From Escherichia phage vB_EcoM_WFH: a stretch of 64,000 nt of DNA. The notes beneath the pieces were generated by a model. It made no database searches, was not told the origin of the DNA, and saw only the letters and a list, made by a program, of their open reading frames with translations. Shown here piece after piece: positions 27,151-56,853 of the stretch. Both the position numbers and the translations under genes were made by a program. Numbering within the stretch: position 1 is the first letter of the stretch; every line of letters starts with the position of its first letter. Where the stretch lies: sequence record NC_048194.1, one strand, 5' to 3'.

Positions 27151-29331
27151 GTGTCTGACTCATTAGAAAAATTTGTTCTTCAATATACGGTGGACTTGAA
27201 AGAGTCCATCAATCGTCTTGAGCAATTGCAAGATAAGGTTGATCAGACAAACAAAAAGGCAAAGTCAGCTGGCAAAGACTTCACTGGAGCATTCAAGGAT
27301 GTGTTTGGGGAGTTGAAGCCTCTCACAGCTGAACTGGGGTCTATTGACGGAATCCTTGCGCGGCTTACTTATCGCTTTGCCGCGCTCGTCCCTGTTGTCG
27401 CAGGATTGGCTGTCGTAGTCAAATCTATCGTTGATGTTCGAAAAGAATACGAAGCGCAAAGGAAGCTTGGATTTGAAGCAGGTCTTTCACCAATTGGCGT
27501 AGAGCAATTACAGCGACAATTGAATGAAAGTTCAGGCGGAGTTCTTGGTGCGCAAGGGTCAAGGGATTTAATCAGCAAGGCTTCTAATCTCGCATTCAAC
27601 GCATACACCAACCCCGATGTGATGAACAAGGATAACTTGCTGCTGAACAAGATGGGGACCAGTCCTTTCAACAGTAACGGCGGCATCAAAGACACAAACC
27701 AGCTGCTTGATGAAATTGGCACAAAGCTGAGAAGTGTGAATGAGCAAACCGCTCGTGCTATTGGTGCTCTGGCAGGTTTTACCGCCGATGAAGTCCGTGC
27801 GCTTCGTGAGCGAAATCAATCAGTCAAAGAAAGCACCCGTATAAGCGACGAAGAAACGGCGAAGCTGCAAAGACAGCAGGCTGCGCTTGAAACGATACGA
27901 AACAGCATGGGCCAAATTCAAGAAGACTGGCGACGCATTGAACTGGTAATCGGTGAGAACGTGATGCCTGCATTCTCGACGCTTGTCAGCAAGACTGCCG
28001 ATACAGTCGAAGGATTCCAGATGATGTTCCAAAGGATGTCTGATGGATGGTCTGAATTTGTCGACAATTTCATCGCTGATTTGAAACACCCGTTCGATAA
28101 ACAGGCAGCTGTTAACGAGCGTCACGAGCGTGCCGTTGATAGATGGATCACTCAGATGGCTGACGGCGATGTGAAACGCCAGAGGAACCAGGAGCAAAAC
28201 GCGGCTGAGCAACGTTCTGCTCAAGCACTTTTCACTCGCGATATAAACCTGTTTTCAAGCGCCGTTTCAACCTTTGCTGGTGTTATTGATGAGCGACAAG
28301 CGTGGGCTGCATGGGCTGGTGAGATAGGACGAAGCGCAGGCCAATCCGCAATGCCTGGCACGCCAGCACTAAGCACTGGCGCGACCGTAGGCAACAACTT
28401 GGGGTCAGGAAATCCGACTGCATATGACTCAATCTATGAGGAAGCCTCCAAGCGTTATGGAATCCCTGTTGCGATGATGAAGGCCGTCACAGAAGTCGAA
28501 TCTGGATTCAACCCTAATGCCGTAAGCGGAGCAGGCGCGACCGGATTGATGCAAATAATGCCTTCCAACTTCAAGGGACTTGGCATCACAGACGGTAACG
28601 ACCCAAGACAAAACATTATGGGCGGCGCTCAACTTCTCAAGGAATATTTAACTGCTGCCAATGGCGATTGGAATCTTGCGCTGACTATGTATCACGGCGG
28701 ATATGACCGCAGCGGATGGGGAAAGAACACCCGCGCATACCCTGGCAAGGTGATGGCCGCTCTCGAACGACAGGCGAATGGAGAATACGCCACGGGAGCG
28801 CCGCAAGGTGCACCAGTTACTCCAGTGCTTAGCGGTAGCGGAGCAGAAGCGCCGAAAGGAAGCTATGCACCAGTACAAGGCCAATCCCGCCAAACGGTGC
28901 AATACAGACAGTTGCAAGAAGCCATTGCAGGATACCTAAACGTGCCAGTTGAGCAGCTGATGCAAGGGCAAGTTAACAAAGGTGATATTGACTTTGCTCA
29001 AACTTACCTTAAACTTGGAACGCAAAGGGATTATATTAAAAACATGCAGCTGGCTTCAACTCCAGGCGTAAGACCGAACATTCAGGCCGAAGCGATGAAG
29101 AATGCTCGTCTTGCGGCATTCCAGCTTGAGGCGTTCCAGAAATACGGCGGCGACCTCTCCGCGAATAGTCGACCTGGTGGGCGTGATATTACTGTGGGTC
29201 AGAAAAACGTTGTCATCAACGTCAACGGCGCTCAAGACCCACGAAGCACGGCTATTGAGACTAAGCGCGTGCTTGAACAAGATGATATCAACGACATAAA
29301 CAACCTTACTGCTACACCTTTGAAGTGGTGA
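27151..29331 (+). CDS. Tape measure protein with lytic transglycosylase (SLT) domain
   Basis: 726 aa, coiled-coil N-terminal half; SLT motif EVESGFNPNAVSGAGATGLMQIM; GTG start after AAGGGG. Confidence 0.8.
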   Translation: MSDSLEKFVLQYTVDLKESINRLEQLQDKVDQTNKKAKSAGKDFTGAFKDVFGELKPLTAELGSIDGILARLTYRFAALVPVVAGLAVVVKSIVDVRKEYEAQRKLGFEAGLSPIGVEQLQRQLNESSGGVLGAQGSRDLISKASNLAFNAYTNPDVMNKDNLLLNKMGTSPFNSNGGIKDTNQLLDEIGTKLRSVNEQTARAIGALAGFTADEVRALRERNQSVKESTRISDEETAKLQRQQAALETIRNSMGQIQEDWRRIELVIGENVMPAFSTLVSKTADTVEGFQMMFQRMSDGWSEFVDNFIADLKHPFDKQAAVNERHERAVDRWITQMADGDVKRQRNQEQNAAEQRSAQALFTRDINLFSSAVSTFAGVIDERQAWAAWAGEIGRSAGQSAMPGTPALSTGATVGNNLGSGNPTAYDSIYEEASKRYGIPVAMMKAVTEVESGFNPNAVSGAGATGLMQIMPSNFKGLGITDGNDPRQNIMGGAQLLKEYLTAANGDWNLALTMYHGGYDRSGWGKNTRAYPGKVMAALERQANGEYATGAPQGAPVTPVLSGSGAEAPKGSYAPVQGQSRQTVQYRQLQEAIAGYLNVPVEQLMQGQVNKGDIDFAQTYLKLGTQRDYIKNMQLASTPGVRPNIQAEAMKNARLAAFQLEAFQKYGGDLSANSRPGGRDITVGQKNVVINVNGAQDPRSTAIETKRVLEQDDINDINNLTATPLKW

Positions 29332-37334: not shown

Positions 37335-37979
37335 ATGATTAATGCAAACGTAATATCTAAAGGGACCGGATGCAGCATGGATGTTGCAGAGAAATGGGTG
37401 GACCATTTCAAGCAGGCTTGTGAGCACTACGGAATCAAAAGCAAGAATGCCATCGCGGCATTCCTTGCAAACGTAGGAGTAGAGACGGGCAGCTTGAAGA
37501 CCTTTGTGGAAAATCTCAACTACTCTGCTCAAGGTCTTGCCAATACATGGCCTAGTCGTTACAGCGTCAACGGTCGCTCTGGAAGTGCCCCGAACTCATT
37601 GGCCCTGTCGATTGCCCGTAAACATGTGGAAATCGCCAATAATACATATGCAAACCGCATGGGCAACGGTTCAGTAGCATCTGGCGACGGTTGGAAGTAC
37701 CGTGGCCGTGGTGCCATTCAGCTGACTGGAAAGGCCAACTATGCGGAATATACGCGTCAATCAGGCTATGATGCATTGAACAATCCTGATATTCTGACTG
37801 AACCAAAATACATTGCTGACAGCGCGGCATGGTTCTTTAAGAATAGCGGCTGTATTCCTCTTGCGGATGCAGGAAATTTTGATTCAACCGTTAAGCGGAT
37901 TAACGGGGCCGCGCCGAACGCAGCAAACCACGGCGAGTTGCGAAGAAAGCGTTACAAGGATGCATTAGCAGTTATGTAA
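37335..37979 (+). CDS. Endolysin, glycoside hydrolase family 19-like
   Basis: GH19-type motifs FLANVGVETG and KYRGRGAIQLTGKANY; RBS AAGGTGA. Confidence 0.8.
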   Translation: MINANVISKGTGCSMDVAEKWVDHFKQACEHYGIKSKNAIAAFLANVGVETGSLKTFVENLNYSAQGLANTWPSRYSVNGRSGSAPNSLALSIARKHVEIANNTYANRMGNGSVASGDGWKYRGRGAIQLTGKANYAEYTRQSGYDALNNPDILTEPKYIADSAAWFFKNSGCIPLADAGNFDSTVKRINGAAPNAANHGELRRKRYKDALAVM

Positions 37980-38010: not shown

Positions 38011-38235
38011 TACGGCTTCAACTTGGACGGGCGGAGCGGAACTTGTATCAATGTCTGGCAAGTCGAAGTAATACCCCGCCATACCAATTGCACCCACAAT
38101 CGCGGCCCGTGCCACCTTGTTGCTAATTGACTCCCCAATAAGCTTTACCAACAGGGATAAGATTTGAGACGTCAAAGCCTTTTTCAGCCTTTTGTTTTCT
38201 TCCAAATCTTTCTGCATAACTACCACCCATGTCAA
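38005..38235 (-). CDS. Small membrane-associated protein (holin or antiholin candidate, unverified)
   Basis: 76 aa, charged amphipathic N-terminus and one hydrophobic segment; adjacent to endolysin on the opposite strand. Confidence 0.4.
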   Translation of the reverse strand: MTWVVVMQKDLEENKRLKKALTSQILSLLVKLIGESISNKVARAAIVGAIGMAGYYFDLPDIDTSSAPPVQVEAVK

Positions 38236-38774
38236 CGCACTTCCTGTGTCTTAACATTACCTGAAGCATCTCTCAAGGGCAGTGGATAGTAGGCCATTTG
38301 GTAGTCTGATACGCCTTCAATGTGATAAAACACGATTACGTCTTTGCTGTTGATGAGCATGTTAACGACATCTGATTTATCTTCTGGAGTGAGTATTAGT
38401 GCGCCGCCTGTCCTGCTGTCTACTGCAACAGGGTATGTCTTGTCGACAAGGCCGCTGTCCAATGTATTATACCTGACAACGATTTCAGGGGCATCAACTT
38501 TTGCCATTGACATTCCGAACACAAACGACACGACCTGCCGACCGCGATCATTCATTACGCACATCTTTTCTTTGTCAAATCTTTCTTTTATTACGTCGTA
38601 TTTATTCCAGCAAAACTCAAATGACTGCCCATTGTTAAAATATCTTGTCAAAACTTTTGCACTTCCATTCGGCGGCGTAAACATATTTTCAGCCGATGCA
38701 GTCTTGGTGAAGAATATAACTGTCAGCATAGCCATGATGATGATCAAAACAATCTTTAATTTGTTCGCTTTCAT
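38232..38774 (-). CDS. Secreted / periplasmic protein of unknown function
   Basis: Signal peptide with ASA-EN cleavage-like site; no lipobox. Confidence 0.5.
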   Translation of the reverse strand: MKANKLKIVLIIIMAMLTVIFFTKTASAENMFTPPNGSAKVLTRYFNNGQSFEFCWNKYDVIKERFDKEKMCVMNDRGRQVVSFVFGMSMAKVDAPEIVVRYNTLDSGLVDKTYPVAVDSRTGGALILTPEDKSDVVNMLINSKDVIVFYHIEGVSDYQMAYYPLPLRDASGNVKTQEVR

Positions 38775-39927: not shown

Positions 39928-40517
39928 TCAAACTCCTTATTCATCACTTGTTCCAGCGCATAGGCATAAGCCTGATCAGTCGATTTAATAAACGTTCCGT
40001 TGTACATCACACCTTTACGGTCCTTGATGTCTTCATAGGCGGCTTGAGCGCAATCAGACAGTCGAAGTCCATAATCATGCGCTACGCCGGAAAGATAATC
40101 GACTGCGGCCATGATAGTGACATCAATATCCATGCTTTGATTTTTAGCAATGGCGTCACCAAGCCGTCCGAGAGTCTTCGCCAAGCGAAGGATAAAGGAA
40201 TGAGGGTGAGCGCCTTTGTCAGCGCAACCGCCTCCGTTGATGTCTTCGATTTTTGCACCATTTTGCGCGGCAAGAATAGTTAACACAACAAGGCAATCAC
40301 CGATGTCGTCCTTGATTGCGGCTTGCAAATCACAAATGGCCTGCTCTGTATATCCGATTTCAGGGTCAAAGAACACAAGGTCATGGAGTTGATCCACGTG
40401 GTCGGTCAACTCCCCAAACTCGCTAATAAGCTTCGGGTATTGGTCTTTAAGGCCGCAACCTTTGATGATGTTACGGTCAGAAGCCCATTGGCGAATGTTT
40501 GCATAAATCTGGTTCAT
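39924..40517 (-). CDS. mazG: MazG-like nucleoside triphosphate pyrophosphohydrolase
   Basis: All-alpha NTP-PPase pattern: EFGELTDHV and DDIGDCLVVLTILAAQNGAKIED. Confidence 0.65.
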   Translation of the reverse strand: MNQIYANIRQWASDRNIIKGCGLKDQYPKLISEFGELTDHVDQLHDLVFFDPEIGYTEQAICDLQAAIKDDIGDCLVVLTILAAQNGAKIEDINGGGCADKGAHPHSFILRLAKTLGRLGDAIAKNQSMDIDVTIMAAVDYLSGVAHDYGLRLSDCAQAAYEDIKDRKGVMYNGTFIKSTDQAYAYALEQVMNKEFE

Positions 40518-41032
40518 TTATTTTCCTTTGATGCGTTGAATTGGTCGATTTTAATTTTAGCCTGATTATAAGTATCAATCAAGCTATTAACTTTCTCTTT
40601 TAATCGGTTCGTTTCTGCGGCGAACTGAACAAGAAATCGGACATCCTCTTCTGATAGTCCACAGTTTCCTTCTGGGATAGAGAGGCGTCCAGTGGTCGCA
40701 GAGTAGGGCACACTCCTGAGTAATTCACGGGAACAGCTGAGTTGCTCGCGCAGCTTGATATTCCCAGACTTGTAACGAGCAATAGTGTCATCAGCAACCA
40801 GTTGCGCTTCCTGGCGACCCTTCTCATATGCCGATGCCGATTCAACCTGTAAAGATGCAATTTGCTCTTCGAGTGCATTTATCTTGTCCTTACGCTCATT
40901 AAGCGATGTCAGATATTGATTGTCCTTGGCCAGTGATGCGTTGGTTTGCTGAAGGTCTTCAACGTATGATCCAGCGGCGAACGCGCCAACAAGGGCCAGA
41001 ATCTTCAGTAGCGGTACAATTCTTTCTATCAT
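40514..41032 (-). CDS. Rz: i-spanin (Rz-like)
   Basis: N-terminal transmembrane segment then long periplasmic coiled coil; contains the embedded lipoprotein ORF. Confidence 0.6.
   Translation of the reverse strand: MIERIVPLLKILALVGAFAAGSYVEDLQQTNASLAKDNQYLTSLNERKDKINALEEQIASLQVESASAYEKGRQEAQLVADDTIARYKSGNIKLREQLSCSRELLRSVPYSATTGRLSIPEGNCGLSEEDVRFLVQFAAETNRLKEKVNSLIDTYNQAKIKIDQFNASKENK
40600..40827 (-). CDS. Rz1: o-spanin (Rz1-like) embedded in an alternative frame of the i-spanin gene
   Basis: MRRVARKRNWLLMTLLLVTSLGISSC: basic n-region, hydrophobic core, lipobox Cys, then Pro-rich segment; start could also be the downstream Met. Confidence 0.55.
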   Translation of the reverse strand: MRRVARKRNWLLMTLLLVTSLGISSCASNSAVPVNYSGVCPTLRPLDASLSQKETVDYQKRMSDFLFSSPQKRTD

Positions 41033-48270: not shown

Positions 48271-48324
48271 ATTAGCCTCCTACAAAAAGGCCGCCCATTA
48301 GGACGGCCACAGATTCACGATTCG

Positions 48325-48876
48325 TTATACAGTGTACGGAGTACCGTCTTGATTCAACCGCACGATGAACTTAAGGTCGACACCAATGATTTCACGCGTA
48401 TCAAAGATCACATAGTTGTAACGACGCTGACCAGCAATGTTTGGGTTGGTGTGAGAGTCGGTCACAACTTCCTGCGCAACCTGAATGCCTTCTTCTTTAA
48501 AGAACTTGCGCCATTCAGCAAGTTCAGCGGCAGTCACGTGCATACCAAGATGGCTAACCTGATTGTCGTGCGCATCGATGTATTCGATGTTTTCGTGAAT
48601 CCAGTTGCAACCTTTTGTATAGTCAAGAATTTCAAGCTCAAGAGGCTTACCAGCTCCGCCATCGGTGCCGTTGCCAGCCTGATAGTTGAAGCGCAAGTCA
48701 GCTTCGTTGGTGCAATCGCCGCGCTGACCCTTAAAGACATCAGCTTCAAATACGCGACCAGTAGCAACAACGTGATCATGGAACCATTCTGTCAGGCCGA
48801 TTTTAGCCAGGAAATTCTGTGCGCGCTGAGCACCTGGAATTGACAGGGCGATTTGTTCAATTTTAAAATGTGGCAT
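48325..48876 (-). CDS. VOC / glyoxalase-fold protein (tentative)
   Basis: N-terminal FKIEQIALSIPGAQRAQNFLAKIGL and second-half HLGMHV pattern. Confidence 0.35.
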   Translation of the reverse strand: MPHFKIEQIALSIPGAQRAQNFLAKIGLTEWFHDHVVATGRVFEADVFKGQRGDCTNEADLRFNYQAGNGTDGGAGKPLELEILDYTKGCNWIHENIEYIDAHDNQVSHLGMHVTAAELAEWRKFFKEEGIQVAQEVVTDSHTNPNIAGQRRYNYVIFDTREIIGVDLKFIVRLNQDGTPYTV

Positions 48877-48966
48877 TTTGTTTCCTTAATTAAATATTAT
48901 TGATTAATTACTGTGTTGTCTTCGTCCTGTTTTTCAGGAGCAGCGACAACTTCAAATGTTCTTGAT

Positions 48967-49650
48967 TTATTTACCAAATGGAATATCAGTACCAGACATA
49001 AAGCGCCATGCGCCCGTAATTAAGATATGGCGAATGAAGTCAGCAATTACTTGCGGCTCAGTCTCCAATCCATTCATCAGCGCCTTTTTCTGGTATTCAG
49101 CAGCATACTCAGGAGTCCAGCCGCGAGTCGCGCAAACAGCATCTTCAATCTGTTTGGACATGCCAGTACCACGTAGCTTGTTAGGACTAATAGAGAATAC
49201 CGTGATCCCGTATTTAGGCGTAAGCTCGTGAGCCATCTGCTTGCTAATCATGAGCGCAGCAGCCTTGGAAGCATTATAACACAAGCTGGACGTCATAGGA
49301 ATATGCGCAGCGTTGGAAACGATGTTGATCACAAAACCTTTGTTGTCAATAAGACTTTTCAGCGCGGCCTGAGTCGTGTTGACGAAAGAGAAGGCGTTGG
49401 TGTGCATAACGCGATTGAACTCTTCGTAGTTAACATCTTCGAACCAGTTGTTGGAGTTGACGCCAGCGCAGTTGATCAAGCCTTCTACGTCGTATTGAGA
49501 GAGAAGCTCTTTCATCTGTTTCGCGTTACGGATGTCATAGCCGTTCTCCAAATCAATACCGACAACTTCATGACCGTAAGCGCCAAGGGTGTCAAAAATG
49601 GATTTACCAAGACCGGAATTGCAGCCAGTTACAACAATTACTTTTTTCAT
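48967..49650 (-). CDS. Short-chain dehydrogenase/reductase (SDR)
   Basis: Cofactor motif VTGCNSGLGKS, NCAG, catalytic Ser ... YNASK. Confidence 0.8.
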   Translation of the reverse strand: MKKVIVVTGCNSGLGKSIFDTLGAYGHEVVGIDLENGYDIRNAKQMKELLSQYDVEGLINCAGVNSNNWFEDVNYEEFNRVMHTNAFSFVNTTQAALKSLIDNKGFVINIVSNAAHIPMTSSLCYNASKAAALMISKQMAHELTPKYGITVFSISPNKLRGTGMSKQIEDAVCATRGWTPEYAAEYQKKALMNGLETEPQVIADFIRHILITGAWRFMSGTDIPFGK

Positions 49651-49715
49651 TTATTTATCCTTTTTGGACTTCGTTTCGATGAGATAAATATAACTCATCG
49701 AAACGCACAAGTAAA

Positions 49716-50588
49716 CTATTTATTGAAATTAATATTATGGGTGTTGACAAGACGTTCACACATGGCGCTGTAAACACCATCATCGTGTATTGAGTCTTCG
49801 TGCTTCAGGCCGCTGATTGCGAAGCGTGTAAGCTTGACAATCTTAAGCTCGAACAGATGCCACATGTGGTAGTCTTCCGGCGTTTTCAACGTCACGCCAT
49901 TAGGGAAAAGCACCTGCATAACCTGACCTACCATCACAGCGTTATCGCCATAGACAGCGTTGCGCTCACGGAAGGTTGCTGCCATCGCATCAAGAATATC
50001 GGCGGCAGTTGCCGGAGATTGTTCAACTTCCACAGCCTTAGTCTCTTCTTGCCCTGTTGCACTTGGATCAATTGCTAATTGTTGCACCACTTCACCTGCC
50101 TTGCAAAGATTAAATGTAAAAGCGATTTTATTTTGAGCAACGGAATTATAATACAATGCTTCATCTTGCATCCGCGCGAGTACGTCTTGTCGGTCGTCGA
50201 ATACATTGATGATTCGATAATCGCCGTGCCGCAATGCGTGCGACAGCCATGCAGATTTCATAATAGTTGATGGACGTTTGTCGCCATAGTCTCTCATCTT
50301 GATTGTAAATTCATCAAAAGGGAAAACATTGTCCAGACGTTCAAAAGTCACTTGTCTGTATTTTTCTGGCCTTGCAGTCCAATATTCAACCGCCTCACCG
50401 CGAAGAGATGCCGACTCTACTGCTGATGCAATGTGAGGATAGAACTGATCATAACCAATACCGCTGTGATAATCATCATAGTCTGACAACGGACCTGCCA
50501 CCTTGATGCGGTCTAAGCGCCAACGGTCATCAAACAGCGTTCCGTCAAGGTCGAATACGTTTAAGATTTCGCTGTTTTTAATGCTCAT
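49716..50588 (-). CDS. HAD-superfamily phosphatase domain fused to an uncharacterised C-terminal domain
   Basis: Motif I FDLDGTL, motif II WTARP, later Lys and FDDRQD; C-terminal about 140 aa unassigned. Confidence 0.6.
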   Translation of the reverse strand: MSIKNSEILNVFDLDGTLFDDRWRLDRIKVAGPLSDYDDYHSGIGYDQFYPHIASAVESASLRGEAVEYWTARPEKYRQVTFERLDNVFPFDEFTIKMRDYGDKRPSTIMKSAWLSHALRHGDYRIINVFDDRQDVLARMQDEALYYNSVAQNKIAFTFNLCKAGEVVQQLAIDPSATGQEETKAVEVEQSPATAADILDAMAATFRERNAVYGDNAVMVGQVMQVLFPNGVTLKTPEDYHMWHLFELKIVKLTRFAISGLKHEDSIHDDGVYSAMCERLVNTHNINFNK

Positions 50589-51388
50589 CCTTTTGATACT
50601 CCATCTTTAGCAACTGGATTGTTGGTGATTGGCATCGCACTCCAAAACTGGATGCGCAACTCTTCTTGCTGTGCCGTGGTATCCATCCAATCACGATACC
50701 AAGGGCAATGGGCTTTACCGTGACGAGGAAATGCGCACTTACCCATACCAATGCATTGCGGCTGCAGTAATGGATTCGCCCAAGGGTGCACCTTGAGGAC
50801 TTCCGCAACCATTGCGCGGAATACTTCTTGATACTCTCCTTGCGTGCGCGTGCACAAGCGGTTTGACGCCATCTGCTGCAGCGTGCGCAAGTTGAACTTT
50901 GCCATGATATGCGTTTGCATATTAGAAGGCAACACGGCACGTGCATCTTGAATCTCTGCGCCAGCCGCGCGAAGCTCTTGATACAAAGCGTCGATAGTCG
51001 CCATCGCATCATCCCACTTCTCTGCCAGTTCAGCTGCCTTCTCGTCATGGCGAGTCCATCCCTTTGGATCATCCTCTGGGTAAGTGAATTTAGCAGGACG
51101 AATCGCATCAAATGCAGACGACTCCTGAGCGCGGCTGGTGCGTTCTTGATATGCGCCTGTGCGTGTGCGTACCATCTGATGGGTCATGTTCTTTGATACA
51201 GCTGTGATATCAAAGATATAGTCCACAAAGTCAAAAGGCGACTTGATTGTATCAAGCATGTAGCGCCAATGCTCTTGCTTCTCTGATTCCGTCATCTCAG
51301 AGACAGGCTTACCAGTCATGCGCGTGTTCTTTGTTTCCAGCAAAAGGTCAAGTGCATCTTGGGTGTATCGAATTAATTCAACTTTCAT
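50585..51388 (-). CDS. ThyX-family (flavin-dependent thymidylate synthase-like) protein with divergent active-site motif and Cys-rich C-terminal extension
   Basis: ThyX-like N-terminus MKVELIRYT; HQMVRTRTGAYQERTSR where canonical ThyX has RHR-x7-S; C-terminal CIGMGKCAFPRHGKAHC. Confidence 0.6.
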   Translation of the reverse strand: MKVELIRYTQDALDLLLETKNTRMTGKPVSEMTESEKQEHWRYMLDTIKSPFDFVDYIFDITAVSKNMTHQMVRTRTGAYQERTSRAQESSAFDAIRPAKFTYPEDDPKGWTRHDEKAAELAEKWDDAMATIDALYQELRAAGAEIQDARAVLPSNMQTHIMAKFNLRTLQQMASNRLCTRTQGEYQEVFRAMVAEVLKVHPWANPLLQPQCIGMGKCAFPRHGKAHCPWYRDWMDTTAQQEELRIQFWSAMPITNNPVAKDGVSKG

Positions 51389-51401
51389 TTTAATTGTCCT
51401 A

Positions 51402-51848
51402 TTAACGGTAATTCACTAGTTGCTGATCACCAGAGAAGGTGCAATGATAAACGAATTGTGCGTTATAAAGCAACTGAAAACTTTTCTTTGGTTCATTATT
51501 AGAACTCATTGATGTAAAGATTTCTGCACCAGAACGGTTTTCACCAATCAGATTGATAAAGCCGCCAGTTGAACGAGGTTGAACGAAAGTGAAACGTTGC
51601 ATCCACGGAGTCCGGTTGACACCTTTTCCGGTGAATCCTTGAATCTGAATATTCAGACCTTCTTGCTCATTCACACCGATGTAAGTGGTAATCTTCGCAC
51701 CAGTCGTTGCTGCGGTCTTACCGTCCATCGCTTCGCAATCGTAAACAGCGATTGAATCGGAAGTACGGATGGCGGCTTCAGTCGCTTCCATATACATGGT
51801 GCCGAGAATAGCAGTTGCGGCAAGCGCGATTCCAGTGATTCGTTTCAT
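51402..51848 (-). CDS. Secreted protein of unknown function
   Basis: N-terminal signal peptide MKRITGIALAATAILGTMYMEA; 148 aa. Confidence 0.5.
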   Translation of the reverse strand: MKRITGIALAATAILGTMYMEATEAAIRTSDSIAVYDCEAMDGKTAATTGAKITTYIGVNEQEGLNIQIQGFTGKGVNRTPWMQRFTFVQPRSTGGFINLIGENRSGAEIFTSMSSNNEPKKSFQLLYNAQFVYHCTFSGDQQLVNYR

Positions 51849-51913
51849 TTTCGTTTCCTCTATGAGTTCTGCTTCAATGATTAAAGTATACGCCCATTGA
51901 AGCAGAAAGCAAA

Positions 51914-52909
51914 TTATTTATTAGCAATATAAGCAAATTTTTGATAGTTATTTGCTTTGATGAGTTTTTCGACTTCAACAAGGTCATGAGCGACGTCATC
52001 AAGCAAGATATTGCGCCAGGTCGCGAATCGACCGACACTAAACACGTTTAAATCCATAGTCAGCTGCAGGAGTAGGGCGTGTCGCAAGTCTTTCGGAATG
52101 TCGACAATCTTGCCATATTTCTGGTCGACCTTTTCAACTTCTTCAAGAGCAATGTCACTCCATGAAAGGCCAAAGGCCGTCAACACTTCGTCGACTTCTG
52201 CGCGCAGCTTCATGTCACGGTAACGAGTGATGCCGCCTGCGGCTTCAACTGCAGCTTCACTCACGCTGACCAAAGGAATTGTTTCAATGATAAGCGTGTC
52301 ACCAGTAATTGATGCGCGGTAAGTTCTGACGGAGTAGTCAGGGAAGTAAATTGTCTGATACAAATCACACTTACGTTTAATCTTAAAGCGGTAAACGCGA
52401 ATGTTTGCTTTATCAAATGAGAAATCAAGCTTTTGATCAATTCCAGCAAGCTTCATCATGACTGGCAGCGGCGACGTGTTGATGATTGGCGTCTCGCTAT
52501 AGCCGCAAAGAGTATCAACCGGAGTATTAAAGAATATGCGGTCACCCAGTTTGTCGACAAGCTGATCATAAAAGTCATCAGGCGCAATATAACGCGTTGC
52601 AGTCTTAAGCTTCATGATTGAACGGCTGCCAAATTGATTGGTGACCTTCATGGAATACATATTGGCAAGGTTGATTGGGCAATGGTCGTGATAGTAGTTG
52701 CCGCGAAAATACACAGCCTTGTCAACTGTCACGGCCTTAAAAGGGATTCCGGTAATACGGCTTACTTCTTCGCCGCGAAAGCGTAGCAGCGCCTTGTGCT
52801 GTTGCGCTCGTTCCCCTGCTTCGTACACAATAGAGTTCGGGAAGTGACACGCGGTGATAAGTCCTGCCAATCCGCCGCCGATAATCATTACAGGTTGTTT
52901 CATGTTCAT
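51914..52909 (-). CDS. FAD/NAD(P)-binding Rossmann-fold flavoprotein (UDP-galactopyranose-mutase-like or GidA/TrmFO-like, unresolved)
   Basis: N-terminal IIGGGLAGL with acidic residue about 20 aa later; C-terminal GRFATWRN resembles a mutase-type motif. Confidence 0.55.
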   Translation of the reverse strand: MNMKQPVMIIGGGLAGLITACHFPNSIVYEAGERAQQHKALLRFRGEEVSRITGIPFKAVTVDKAVYFRGNYYHDHCPINLANMYSMKVTNQFGSRSIMKLKTATRYIAPDDFYDQLVDKLGDRIFFNTPVDTLCGYSETPIINTSPLPVMMKLAGIDQKLDFSFDKANIRVYRFKIKRKCDLYQTIYFPDYSVRTYRASITGDTLIIETIPLVSVSEAAVEAAGGITRYRDMKLRAEVDEVLTAFGLSWSDIALEEVEKVDQKYGKIVDIPKDLRHALLLQLTMDLNVFSVGRFATWRNILLDDVAHDLVEVEKLIKANNYQKFAYIANK

Positions 52910-53042
52910 TTGTCCTTTGTGGGTGATATGAGAAGTATAATAGCTAAATTATTTTACAGCAACAAGTCATTTTATTTAGTACAGATGAAAAAAAGACCCA
53001 CAACAAGTGTGGGTCAATTACCGCTGCATAACCGTCCTAAGG

Positions 53043-53888
53043 TTATTCCGCTTGATCACCGTCTTCGGCATCTTCGTTGGGTTCAACATCGACAAACTCG
53101 ATGTGGCCCATCTCTTCCAGCTTGCTCAGGTAGGAGCGAACGGAAGCGCCAAACAGTTGATCTTTAACTTTTTCGCCCAGCTCATCGATAGACTGCGCCA
53201 CGCCAACTTCGCCTTCTTTGATCGCCGCCAGAACGCGTCCACGGGTGGAATGCTCTTGCGGCTGGCTCAGGCCATTGCCAGTGTAGATGAAGTGAGTAGC
53301 TTTTGCACGACGTTGACCGTTTGCCTTTTTAGCGGCCTTACGTTCTGCGATGGCTTTGCGACGTTCTTCAGCTTCTTTCTTACGCTGTTCTTTCTGTTGT
53401 TCTGCAGCTTCTTTCGCCGCAATCTTAGCAGCTTCACGCTCTGCCTTGCGTTTCGCTTTAGCTTCTTCTTTGGCCTTCTCTTTTTCGGCCTTCGCTGCAG
53501 CACGGGCTTGATCACGCTCTGCTTTCTTAGCAGCAGCTTGTTCAGCTTTCAGGCGCTTGGCTTCTTCTTTAGCCTTTGCCTTTTCGATTTCTTTTGCTGC
53601 TTTAGCGGCTTCACGCTCTGCTTTCTTAGCAGCAGCCTTTTCTGCACGCTCTTTAGCTTTCTTAGCTGCTTCTTCAGCACGCTTCTGAGCCTTCTCATCA
53701 GCAGCCTGCTTGCGTTTCAGGGCAGCTTCTTCACGCTTGGCTTGTTTTTCCTGCTCACGCTTCTGGCGTTTTTCTTCGGCTTCTTTCTTTTTAGCCAGAC
53801 GTTTTTCTTCAGCCACGCGACGGCGTTCTGCTGCAGCTGCTTGCTTTTCTTCTTTAGATAATACTTTGATTGCTTCGGCCATATTCAC
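53043..53888 (-). CDS. ER/K-rich single-alpha-helix protein with C-terminal winged-helix-like domain
   Basis: About 170 aa of Lys/Glu/Ala/Arg repeats then a globular C-terminus (RVLAAIKEGEVGVAQSIDELGEKV ... YLSKLEEMGHIEF). Confidence 0.6.
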   Translation of the reverse strand: MNMAEAIKVLSKEEKQAAAAERRRVAEEKRLAKKKEAEEKRQKREQEKQAKREEAALKRKQAADEKAQKRAEEAAKKAKERAEKAAAKKAEREAAKAAKEIEKAKAKEEAKRLKAEQAAAKKAERDQARAAAKAEKEKAKEEAKAKRKAEREAAKIAAKEAAEQQKEQRKKEAEERRKAIAERKAAKKANGQRRAKATHFIYTGNGLSQPQEHSTRGRVLAAIKEGEVGVAQSIDELGEKVKDQLFGASVRSYLSKLEEMGHIEFVDVEPNEDAEDGDQAE

Positions 53889-56795: not shown

Positions 56796-56853
56796 TTTGC
56801 TTTTATTTTTCTAGCAACTATAATCATTTTATGAACTGAAGCAGAGGTGATTT

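Follow-up and report, generated by a model that had tools for sequence, protein, structure and literature searches.

Results

The gene and its transcription unit

At 51402..51848 on the minus strand, the window (the whole stretch of 64,000 nucleotides analysed here, from Escherichia phage vB_EcoM_WFH, NC_048194.1) carries a coding sequence of 148 codons. Its ATG lies at 51848-51846 and is preceded, 7 nt further 5', by the Shine-Dalgarno sequence GAGGA (51856..51860, minus strand); GAGG is found also before the homologous genes at three related loci (L002, L003 and L014). A sequence-only reading of the window had noted an ORF with a signal-peptide-like N-terminus at this place, and such a gene is indeed present, in 27 of 27 Wifcevirus records. 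Seven Wifcevirus alleles, when pooled, gave a pS of 0.17, a pN of 0.016 and a pN/pS of 0.094, which compares with 0.031 for the GxGxxG protein and 0.115 for ThyX encoded on its two sides. The gene is therefore real and under purifying selection within Wifcevirus.

The start of thyX (50585..51388, minus strand), the co-transcribed downstream gene, lies 13 nt past the stop codon, and the 148-aa gene is hence the one closest to the promoter in the thyX transcription unit. This neighbour, so far only described as ThyX-like, is ThyX (Pfam Thy1, E 2.9e-30). For the neighbour on the other side (51914-52909) the label flavoprotein is plausible in view of a GxGxxG motif, but there was no match in Pfam, NCBIfam or the PDB. 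Terminator prediction delimits the unit with an intrinsic terminator upstream, after the phrog_4765 gene (52995..53015, minus strand), and a second one that closes it after a 183-aa VOC-like gene (48289..48308, minus strand). Between them lie the phrog_4828 gene, the 148-aa gene, thyX and the genes for a phosphatase, an SDR and the VOC-like protein. We infer that the 148-aa protein is made together with replication and nucleotide-metabolism enzymes, well before lysis.

The enzymes encoded in this stretch (48289-53015, minus strand), i.e., the GxGxxG protein (phrog_4828), ThyX, a HAD/PNKP-like phosphatase, an SDR and a VOC/glyoxalase-like protein, are conserved in Wifcevirus relatives and make up a candidate nucleotide or DNA-modification pathway. 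Upstream of the unit, 53043-53888 (minus strand) encodes a Lys/Ala/Glu-rich protein of 281 aa (phrog_4765) that is named 'TolA protein' in several records, evidently via low-complexity similarity. It obtained a high score in the mass spectrometry of virion preparations (PMC7048862).

A predicted sigma-70-like promoter precedes the 148-aa gene (51885..51912, minus strand), with the hexamers TTGCTT (51912-51907) and TATACT (51890-51885) spaced by 16 nt. A generic promoter scanner made no call at 51885-51912, and promoter-like sites in the window were not enriched over shuffles; many other genes in the window have a site of this form upstream. We assign the promoter because it is conserved in the relatives: L002, L003 and L014 have both hexamers and the downstream GAAGCAGA unchanged, although the coding sequence that follows is only ~30% identical. 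The element GAAGCAGA also occurs downstream of a promoter-like site at 56797 on the plus strand. A perfect 13-bp inverted repeat with a 15-nt loop (51867..51907, not strand-specific) overlaps the -10 hexamer and the start site predicted near 51879. In read-through RNA it folds as a 14-bp hairpin (dG -19.3 kcal/mol, z -3.6), and the repeat might serve as an operator or as a site of RNA processing, or might, as a hairpin, stabilise read-through transcripts. A palindrome with other arms (GGGTTAT/ATAACCC) lies at the same spot in the related loci (L002:1666-1751, L003:9011-9101, L014:5913-6003). The region upstream of the 148-aa gene gave no match in an Rfam scan.

Distribution and relatives

By tblastn the source stretch belongs to Wifcevirus, a genus of virulent E. 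coli and Shigella myoviruses of 66-72 kb. The same search found the gene in 27 of 27 Wifcevirus records at 96-100% amino acid identity, with an identical copy in Shigella phage CWP003 and 96-99% in the other 26, where it is called 'hypothetical protein' if annotated at all. This is the case for vB_Eco4M-7 gp81, ECML-117 AFO10512 and Bas99_0051, which are the same protein. Since a search with thyX recovers the same 27 Escherichia, Shigella and Wifcevirus records, the gene is part of the genus core. The cluster of the protein at 90% identity holds 104 distinct sequences, and the 16 members that we read are all 148 aa long and without a functional name. Among 16 distinct Wifcevirus alleles there were no replacements in residues 1-26, and scattered conservative changes in the mature part.

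Outside the genus, relatives are few. A word-indexed search of 5.8 billion proteins returned the protein's own cluster only, and exhaustive HMMER over 1.84 billion representatives added a single relative, P0002 (129 aa, 32% identity). Searches with P0002 and with a family profile added P0003 and P0019 (133 aa) and P0004 (126 aa). All stem from metagenomic, phage-like contigs, represent three further lineages at 28-35% identity, and occupy the slot upstream of thyX. The gene order on these contigs is a ~320-aa protein (phrog_4828), the homologue, thyX, HAD/PNKP-like phosphatase, SDR, VOC-like protein, exonuclease and Pol III alpha. Whereas these neighbours are 42-89% identical between the lineages and the window, the 148-aa protein reaches only 28-32%. 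It thus evolves fast between lineages and is tightly held within Wifcevirus.

Further relatives were absent from IMG/VR (three scans), JGI metagenomes, GTDB genomes, complete E. coli genomes and plasmids. Neither the protein nor its family members matched an entry of Pfam, PHROGs, NCBIfam or PADLOC up to an E of 10, and PDB sequence searches with the single protein and the profile gave chance-level matches (E 0.6-0.9). Profile comparison spoke against paralogy with the second signal-peptide protein of the window, encoded at 38232-38774 (hhalign probability 1.7%), and against kinship with an ORF in the corresponding slot of a Salmonella phage (probability 0.2%). Known only from Wifcevirus and three metagenomic sister lineages, the family is an ORFan.

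A probable N-terminal export signal

The N-terminus of the 148-aa protein reads MKR, ITGIALAATAILGTMYM and then EATEA↓AIRT, with the arrow at the predicted signal peptidase I site after A25. The signal peptide would thus comprise residues 1-25 (MKRITGIALAATAILGTMYMEATEA; 51774..51848, minus strand), with a positively charged n-region, an uncharged core of 17 residues and a polar stretch that places T at -3 and A at -1. We judged this Sec-type layout by inspection, in the protein and in its relatives, and found it in all members: TEA↓A in the window, VGA↓A in P0002, VGA↓G in P0003, VNA↓G in P0019 and ATA↓G in P0004. The Ala at -1, Ala25 in the window, is invariant at one alignment column across the lineages, and -3 is T, V or A. 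P0004 has a short, canonical signal, MKRLILAVAMLSSFAATA↓GEY, with a core of ~12 residues that differs from the signals of the other lineages. The mature N-termini of P0003 and P0004 are nearly alike (GEYRGNRT...), yet their signal sequences differ. Here the feature is kept without its sequence being kept, as predicted for a cleavable targeting signal. N-termini of this kind are rare in the window, occurring in 2 of 92 non-overlapping ORFs, with 38232-38774 as the other one; the scan also caught the membrane-anchored i-spanin.

The earlier reading had considered that the N-terminus might instead be the membrane anchor of a cytoplasmic protein. This is disfavoured by the charges around the core, +2 ahead of it and no more than +1 over the 15 residues that follow, a distribution that would place the C-terminal domain outside even if the signal stayed uncleaved. 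A crude sum on the Hessa scale came to ~+4 both for the 148-aa protein and for a bona fide spanin anchor and does not separate signal from anchor. Other export routes were considered as well. A lipobox ([LVI][ASTVI][GAS]C) is absent from the family, where no lineage has a Cys before residue 38, and a lipoprotein of the Llp or Cor type was rejected for want of the lipobox Cys. A Tat substrate was rejected because the twin-arginine motif S/T-R-R-x-F-L-K is missing, with only K2-R3 present. With its tripartite signal, the invariant Ala at -1 and two invariant cysteines across four divergent lineages, the protein is very probably exported to the periplasm, as had been proposed, and signal peptidase I would cleave it after Ala25.

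The mature domain

Residues 26-148 (51405..51773, minus strand) would form a mature domain of 123 aa, 13.6 kDa and pI 8.0. It holds exactly two cysteines, both invariant across the lineages in the family alignment: Cys38 (codon 51735..51737, minus strand) in the first predicted strand and Cys136 (codon 51441..51443, minus strand) in the last. The two are probably joined in a disulfide, which would fit formation in the periplasm.

For this domain AlphaFold2 (AF2) predicts 8-9 antiparallel beta strands. The prediction from the single sequence was poor (pLDDT 42). With an alignment of five sequences, pLDDT rose to ~80 over residues 30-145 at a pTM of 0.64, and the model showed nine short strands, all antiparallel, and a single short helix inside a Wifcevirus-specific insertion. 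An independent BFVD model of the Mansfield orthologue superposes on it with a TM score of 0.78. The modelling thus predicts an all-beta fold class for the mature domain, and a small meander beta-barrel is a reasonable reading of the model. The fold search yielded no significant structural relative in the PDB or in BFVD. The best PDB matches in Foldseek were designed eight-stranded barrels (E 0.012, TM ~0.5 on the target, not significant), followed by lipocalins and LolA at TM 0.3-0.4, the lipocalins with E 0.02-0.1. In BFVD, Foldseek retrieved the protein's own orthologue and otherwise only weak lipocalin-like matches, none of them significant.

Lysis genes and virion proteins

The 148-aa gene lies ~10 kb from the endolysin and spanin genes. 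A GH19-type endolysin is encoded at 37335-37979, ~2.5 kb from the spanin genes and on the opposite strand to them. The spanins are an Rz-like i-spanin (phrog_1327, 40514-41032, minus strand) and an Rz1-like lipoprotein ORF with the lipobox ISSC (phrog_4306, 40600-40878, minus strand), embedded out-of-frame in the i-spanin gene. We identified no holin. The second signal-peptide protein of the window (38232-38774, minus strand; MKANKLKIVLIIIMAMLTVIFFTKTASA↓EN; 180 aa) has no Pfam or PHROG match, and its gene adjoins that of the GH19 endolysin, ~2 kb from the spanins.

In vB_Eco4M-7 and ECML-117 preparations, mass spectrometry found several products of neighbouring genes and did not find gp81/AFO10512 (PMC7048862). 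A role as a virion protein, of which these preparations gave no sign, was rejected.

Discussion

Comparison with known exported phage proteins

The closest functional parallel might be T4 Spackle (gp61.3), the best-documented case in a virulent coliphage: an early, signal-cleaved periplasmic protein of 75 aa with one disulfide that inhibits the tail lysozyme of superinfecting phages (PMC7677548). Both are small proteins of virulent E. coli myoviruses that carry an export signal at the N-terminus, cleaved in Spackle and presumably here, and a single disulfide once mature, inferred in our case, and both genes lie among genes of the early or replication period, outside the lysis cassette (PMC7677548). 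However, no PHROG or Pfam match links the 148-aa protein to Spackle, and Spackle is an alpha-helical bundle (PMC7677548), whereas a domain of 123 aa that is predicted to be all-beta is found here. Because the folds differ, the analogy is functional only.

Bacterial lysozyme inhibitors (MliC/PliC, PliG, PliI, Ivy) are likewise small, periplasmic and mainly beta-sheet, some with a disulfide, and inhibit via a loop between antiparallel strands (PMC7677548). The 148-aa protein has a comparable invariant hairpin, L100-x-G102-E103...G107, but these inhibitors are absent from its top 50 Foldseek PDB matches. Pfam returned no family at E up to 10 for any of the five family members, MliC/PliC (PF09864) included. 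A motif of the MliC type, SxSGAxY, is not kept across the family, with the tripeptide SGA in the Wifcevirus branch only. Lipocalin or calycin barrels such as Blc and siderocalin come closest in structure, if only weakly, and their meander antiparallel barrel topology would be shared by the fold predicted here. The 148-aa protein differs from them in being shorter and in lacking the C-terminal helix, the GxW motif and a Pfam match, and the similarity stays at TM 0.3-0.4 and E >= 0.02.

The T4 antiholin RI is likewise a small phage protein with a weakly hydrophobic N-terminal segment, a SAR domain, that sends its C-terminal part to the periplasm. In RI this part is helical and has the holin as its target. 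Unlike RI, the 148-aa family has a conserved cleavage-type site and one homologue with a short classical signal, and the gene is unlinked to lysis genes. T5 Llp and the Cor-type proteins are exported phage accessory proteins that block re-infection in the envelope (PMC9586334). These are lipoproteins, whereas the lipobox Cys is missing here, and the Wifcevirus receptor is O-antigen and not a porin or transporter. The 148-aa protein is hence best filed as an uncharacterised small exported accessory protein like Sp, Imm, RI and Llp, but with a different fold.

Small secreted ORFans are common in virulent phages and unsurprising in themselves, and the present family has no characterised relative. 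Nevertheless, superinfection exclusion or envelope takeover would be an obvious role to consider for a protein that belongs to the genus core and is exported into the host envelope, and both functions affect the joint behaviour of phages in cocktails. Wifcevirus phages have been used or proposed against E. coli O157 and became tractable on K-12 derivatives only recently (PMC11990801).

A possible role in the periplasm of the infected cell

We tentatively favour a protective or exclusion role by analogy with Spackle, while regarding it as possible rather than probable. The pre-protein would be exported by the host Sec machinery and cut by signal peptidase I after Ala25, which would leave a soluble periplasmic domain of ~13.6 kDa. 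This domain could adopt a small antiparallel beta-barrel-like fold, probably closed by the Cys38-Cys136 disulfide via DsbA. With its gene first after a host-type promoter that would also drive thyX and other nucleotide-metabolism enzymes, the protein would be available well before lysis. The mature protein might then bind and neutralise a conserved envelope component of the infected cell, the most likely target being the apparatus with which a second, incoming phage degrades peptidoglycan or penetrates the cell. As a result, the infected cell would be protected (superinfection exclusion, lysis from without).

Receptor-binding fibres vary widely in Wifcevirus (PMC11990801). As the 148-aa protein is 96-100% identical all the same, its target would be conserved and not of the O-antigen type. 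Fast divergence between lineages (28-32% compared with 42-89% for the neighbours) is as expected for a host- or phage-interacting protein, and would fit a host target equally well. Tight constraint within the genus together with fast divergence between lineages fits the profile of a binder to a conserved envelope target. Pfam, PHROGs, NCBIfam, PADLOC, PDB sequence searches and Foldseek against the PDB and BFVD revealed no sequence or fold link to a protein of known function, and no match among them favours the effector or superinfection-exclusion roles suggested earlier. An SLT-domain tail protein is encoded in the window at 27151-29331, but nothing links the 148-aa protein to the tail lysin of the phage. 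More specifically, the family might represent a beta-barrel class of phage periplasmic immunity proteins that are made early and act against incoming Wifcevirus-like phages by inhibiting their SLT-type tail lysin or another component of penetration. We consider this version unlikely. If true, it would be a beta-barrel solution to superinfection exclusion independent of T4 Spackle, and might bear on the unusually short infection cycle reported for Wifcevirus.

Following close behind the Spackle-like role, although on balance doubtful, is a takeover of the host periplasm. The barrel would bind a host protein (protease, murein hydrolase, nuclease or chaperone) or, in the manner of lipocalins, a hydrophobic ligand such as a lipid or LPS intermediate, and so condition the envelope for the phage cycle. 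The export evidence applies equally to this reading, the high conservation across Wifcevirus isolates on E. coli of different O-types (PMC11990801) fits a conserved host target, and the protein diverges fast between putative host genera. Ligand-binding barrels (lipocalins, LolA and designed barrels, TM 0.3-0.5) account for the weak Foldseek matches, but none of these is significant, with a best E of 0.012, and there is no Pfam match to lipocalins, MliC or any other family at an E of 10 and no GxW motif. Distinctly less probable is an uncleaved N-terminus, i.e., a signal anchor or a SAR domain like that of RI, which would hold the beta domain at the periplasmic face of the inner membrane, where it might regulate, for instance, lysis timing or, like Imm, DNA entry. 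Gly, Ala and Thr make up 9 of the 17 core residues, a composition reportedly typical of SAR domains, the core is fairly long (17-18 residues in three lineages), and within Wifcevirus the signal region is more conserved than the mature part, without any change in 26 residues. The classical core of P0004, however, is with ~12 residues too short for a membrane span, a -3/-1 site of small residues is kept at one alignment column in every lineage, and the endolysin and spanin genes lie ~10 kb away.

Two further readings are highly improbable. A signal peptide followed by an all-beta domain of ~8 strands would also suit an outer-membrane barrel of the Lom/Ail/OmpX type, inserted by BAM. The smallest transmembrane beta-barrels have roughly 150 aa, and the mature proteins of the family, with 101-123 aa (P0004 108, P0002 104), fall short of this. 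They end in -NYR, -NWTK or -SYRK without a terminal aromatic residue, carry conserved strand cysteines, and reach a Foldseek probability of at most 0.2 for OMP-like matches. We rejected the OmpX/Ail/Lom barrel since both the mature size and the lack of a C-terminal aromatic beta-signal argue against it. Just as little credence can be given to a product that stays in the cytoplasm as a partner of the adjacent nucleotide-metabolism enzymes, or to an ORF without function. The gene is embedded in an operon of cytoplasmic enzymes and co-transcribed with it, but Carpasina, Pbunavirus and Myosmarvirus have the same enzyme operon without the gene, from which it follows that the enzymes do not need the 148-aa protein. 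Moreover, signal features and the Cys pair are conserved, and the purifying selection rules out a dead ORF.

The slot upstream of thyX

The position upstream of thyX is occupied differently in other genera. It holds an unrelated 117-aa protein without a signal in Serratia phage Spe5P4, five small ORFs in Pbunavirus LBL3 and other ORFs in a Salmonella relative, and is empty in Carpasina; Carpasina and LBL3 also have a promoter-like element at this position. The 148-aa gene is thus an accessory gene in a promoter-proximal slot that varies between genera. To this extent the earlier suggestion of an unrelated moron has a basis. On the other hand, the gene is genus-core, syntenic in distant relatives and normal in GC, and it has no counterpart in E. 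coli, plasmids or GTDB. A recent, horizontally acquired moron was rejected, given the promoter shared with thyX, the lack of a terminator of its own, a GC content of 0.445 compared with 0.462 for the 64-kb window, and its presence in 27 of 27 Wifcevirus records.

In Salmonella phage vB_SeEM_UALMA_PCSE1 (PQ314491.1; L018:2543-3008), an unannotated gap of 466 nt before thyX contains an ORF of 109 aa that starts with TTG. It has a lipoprotein-signal-like N-terminus (MARFGFVLLIISFCSC↓AGQ) and no homologues elsewhere. If this ORF is real, the slot upstream of thyX houses an unrelated exported protein in another genus.
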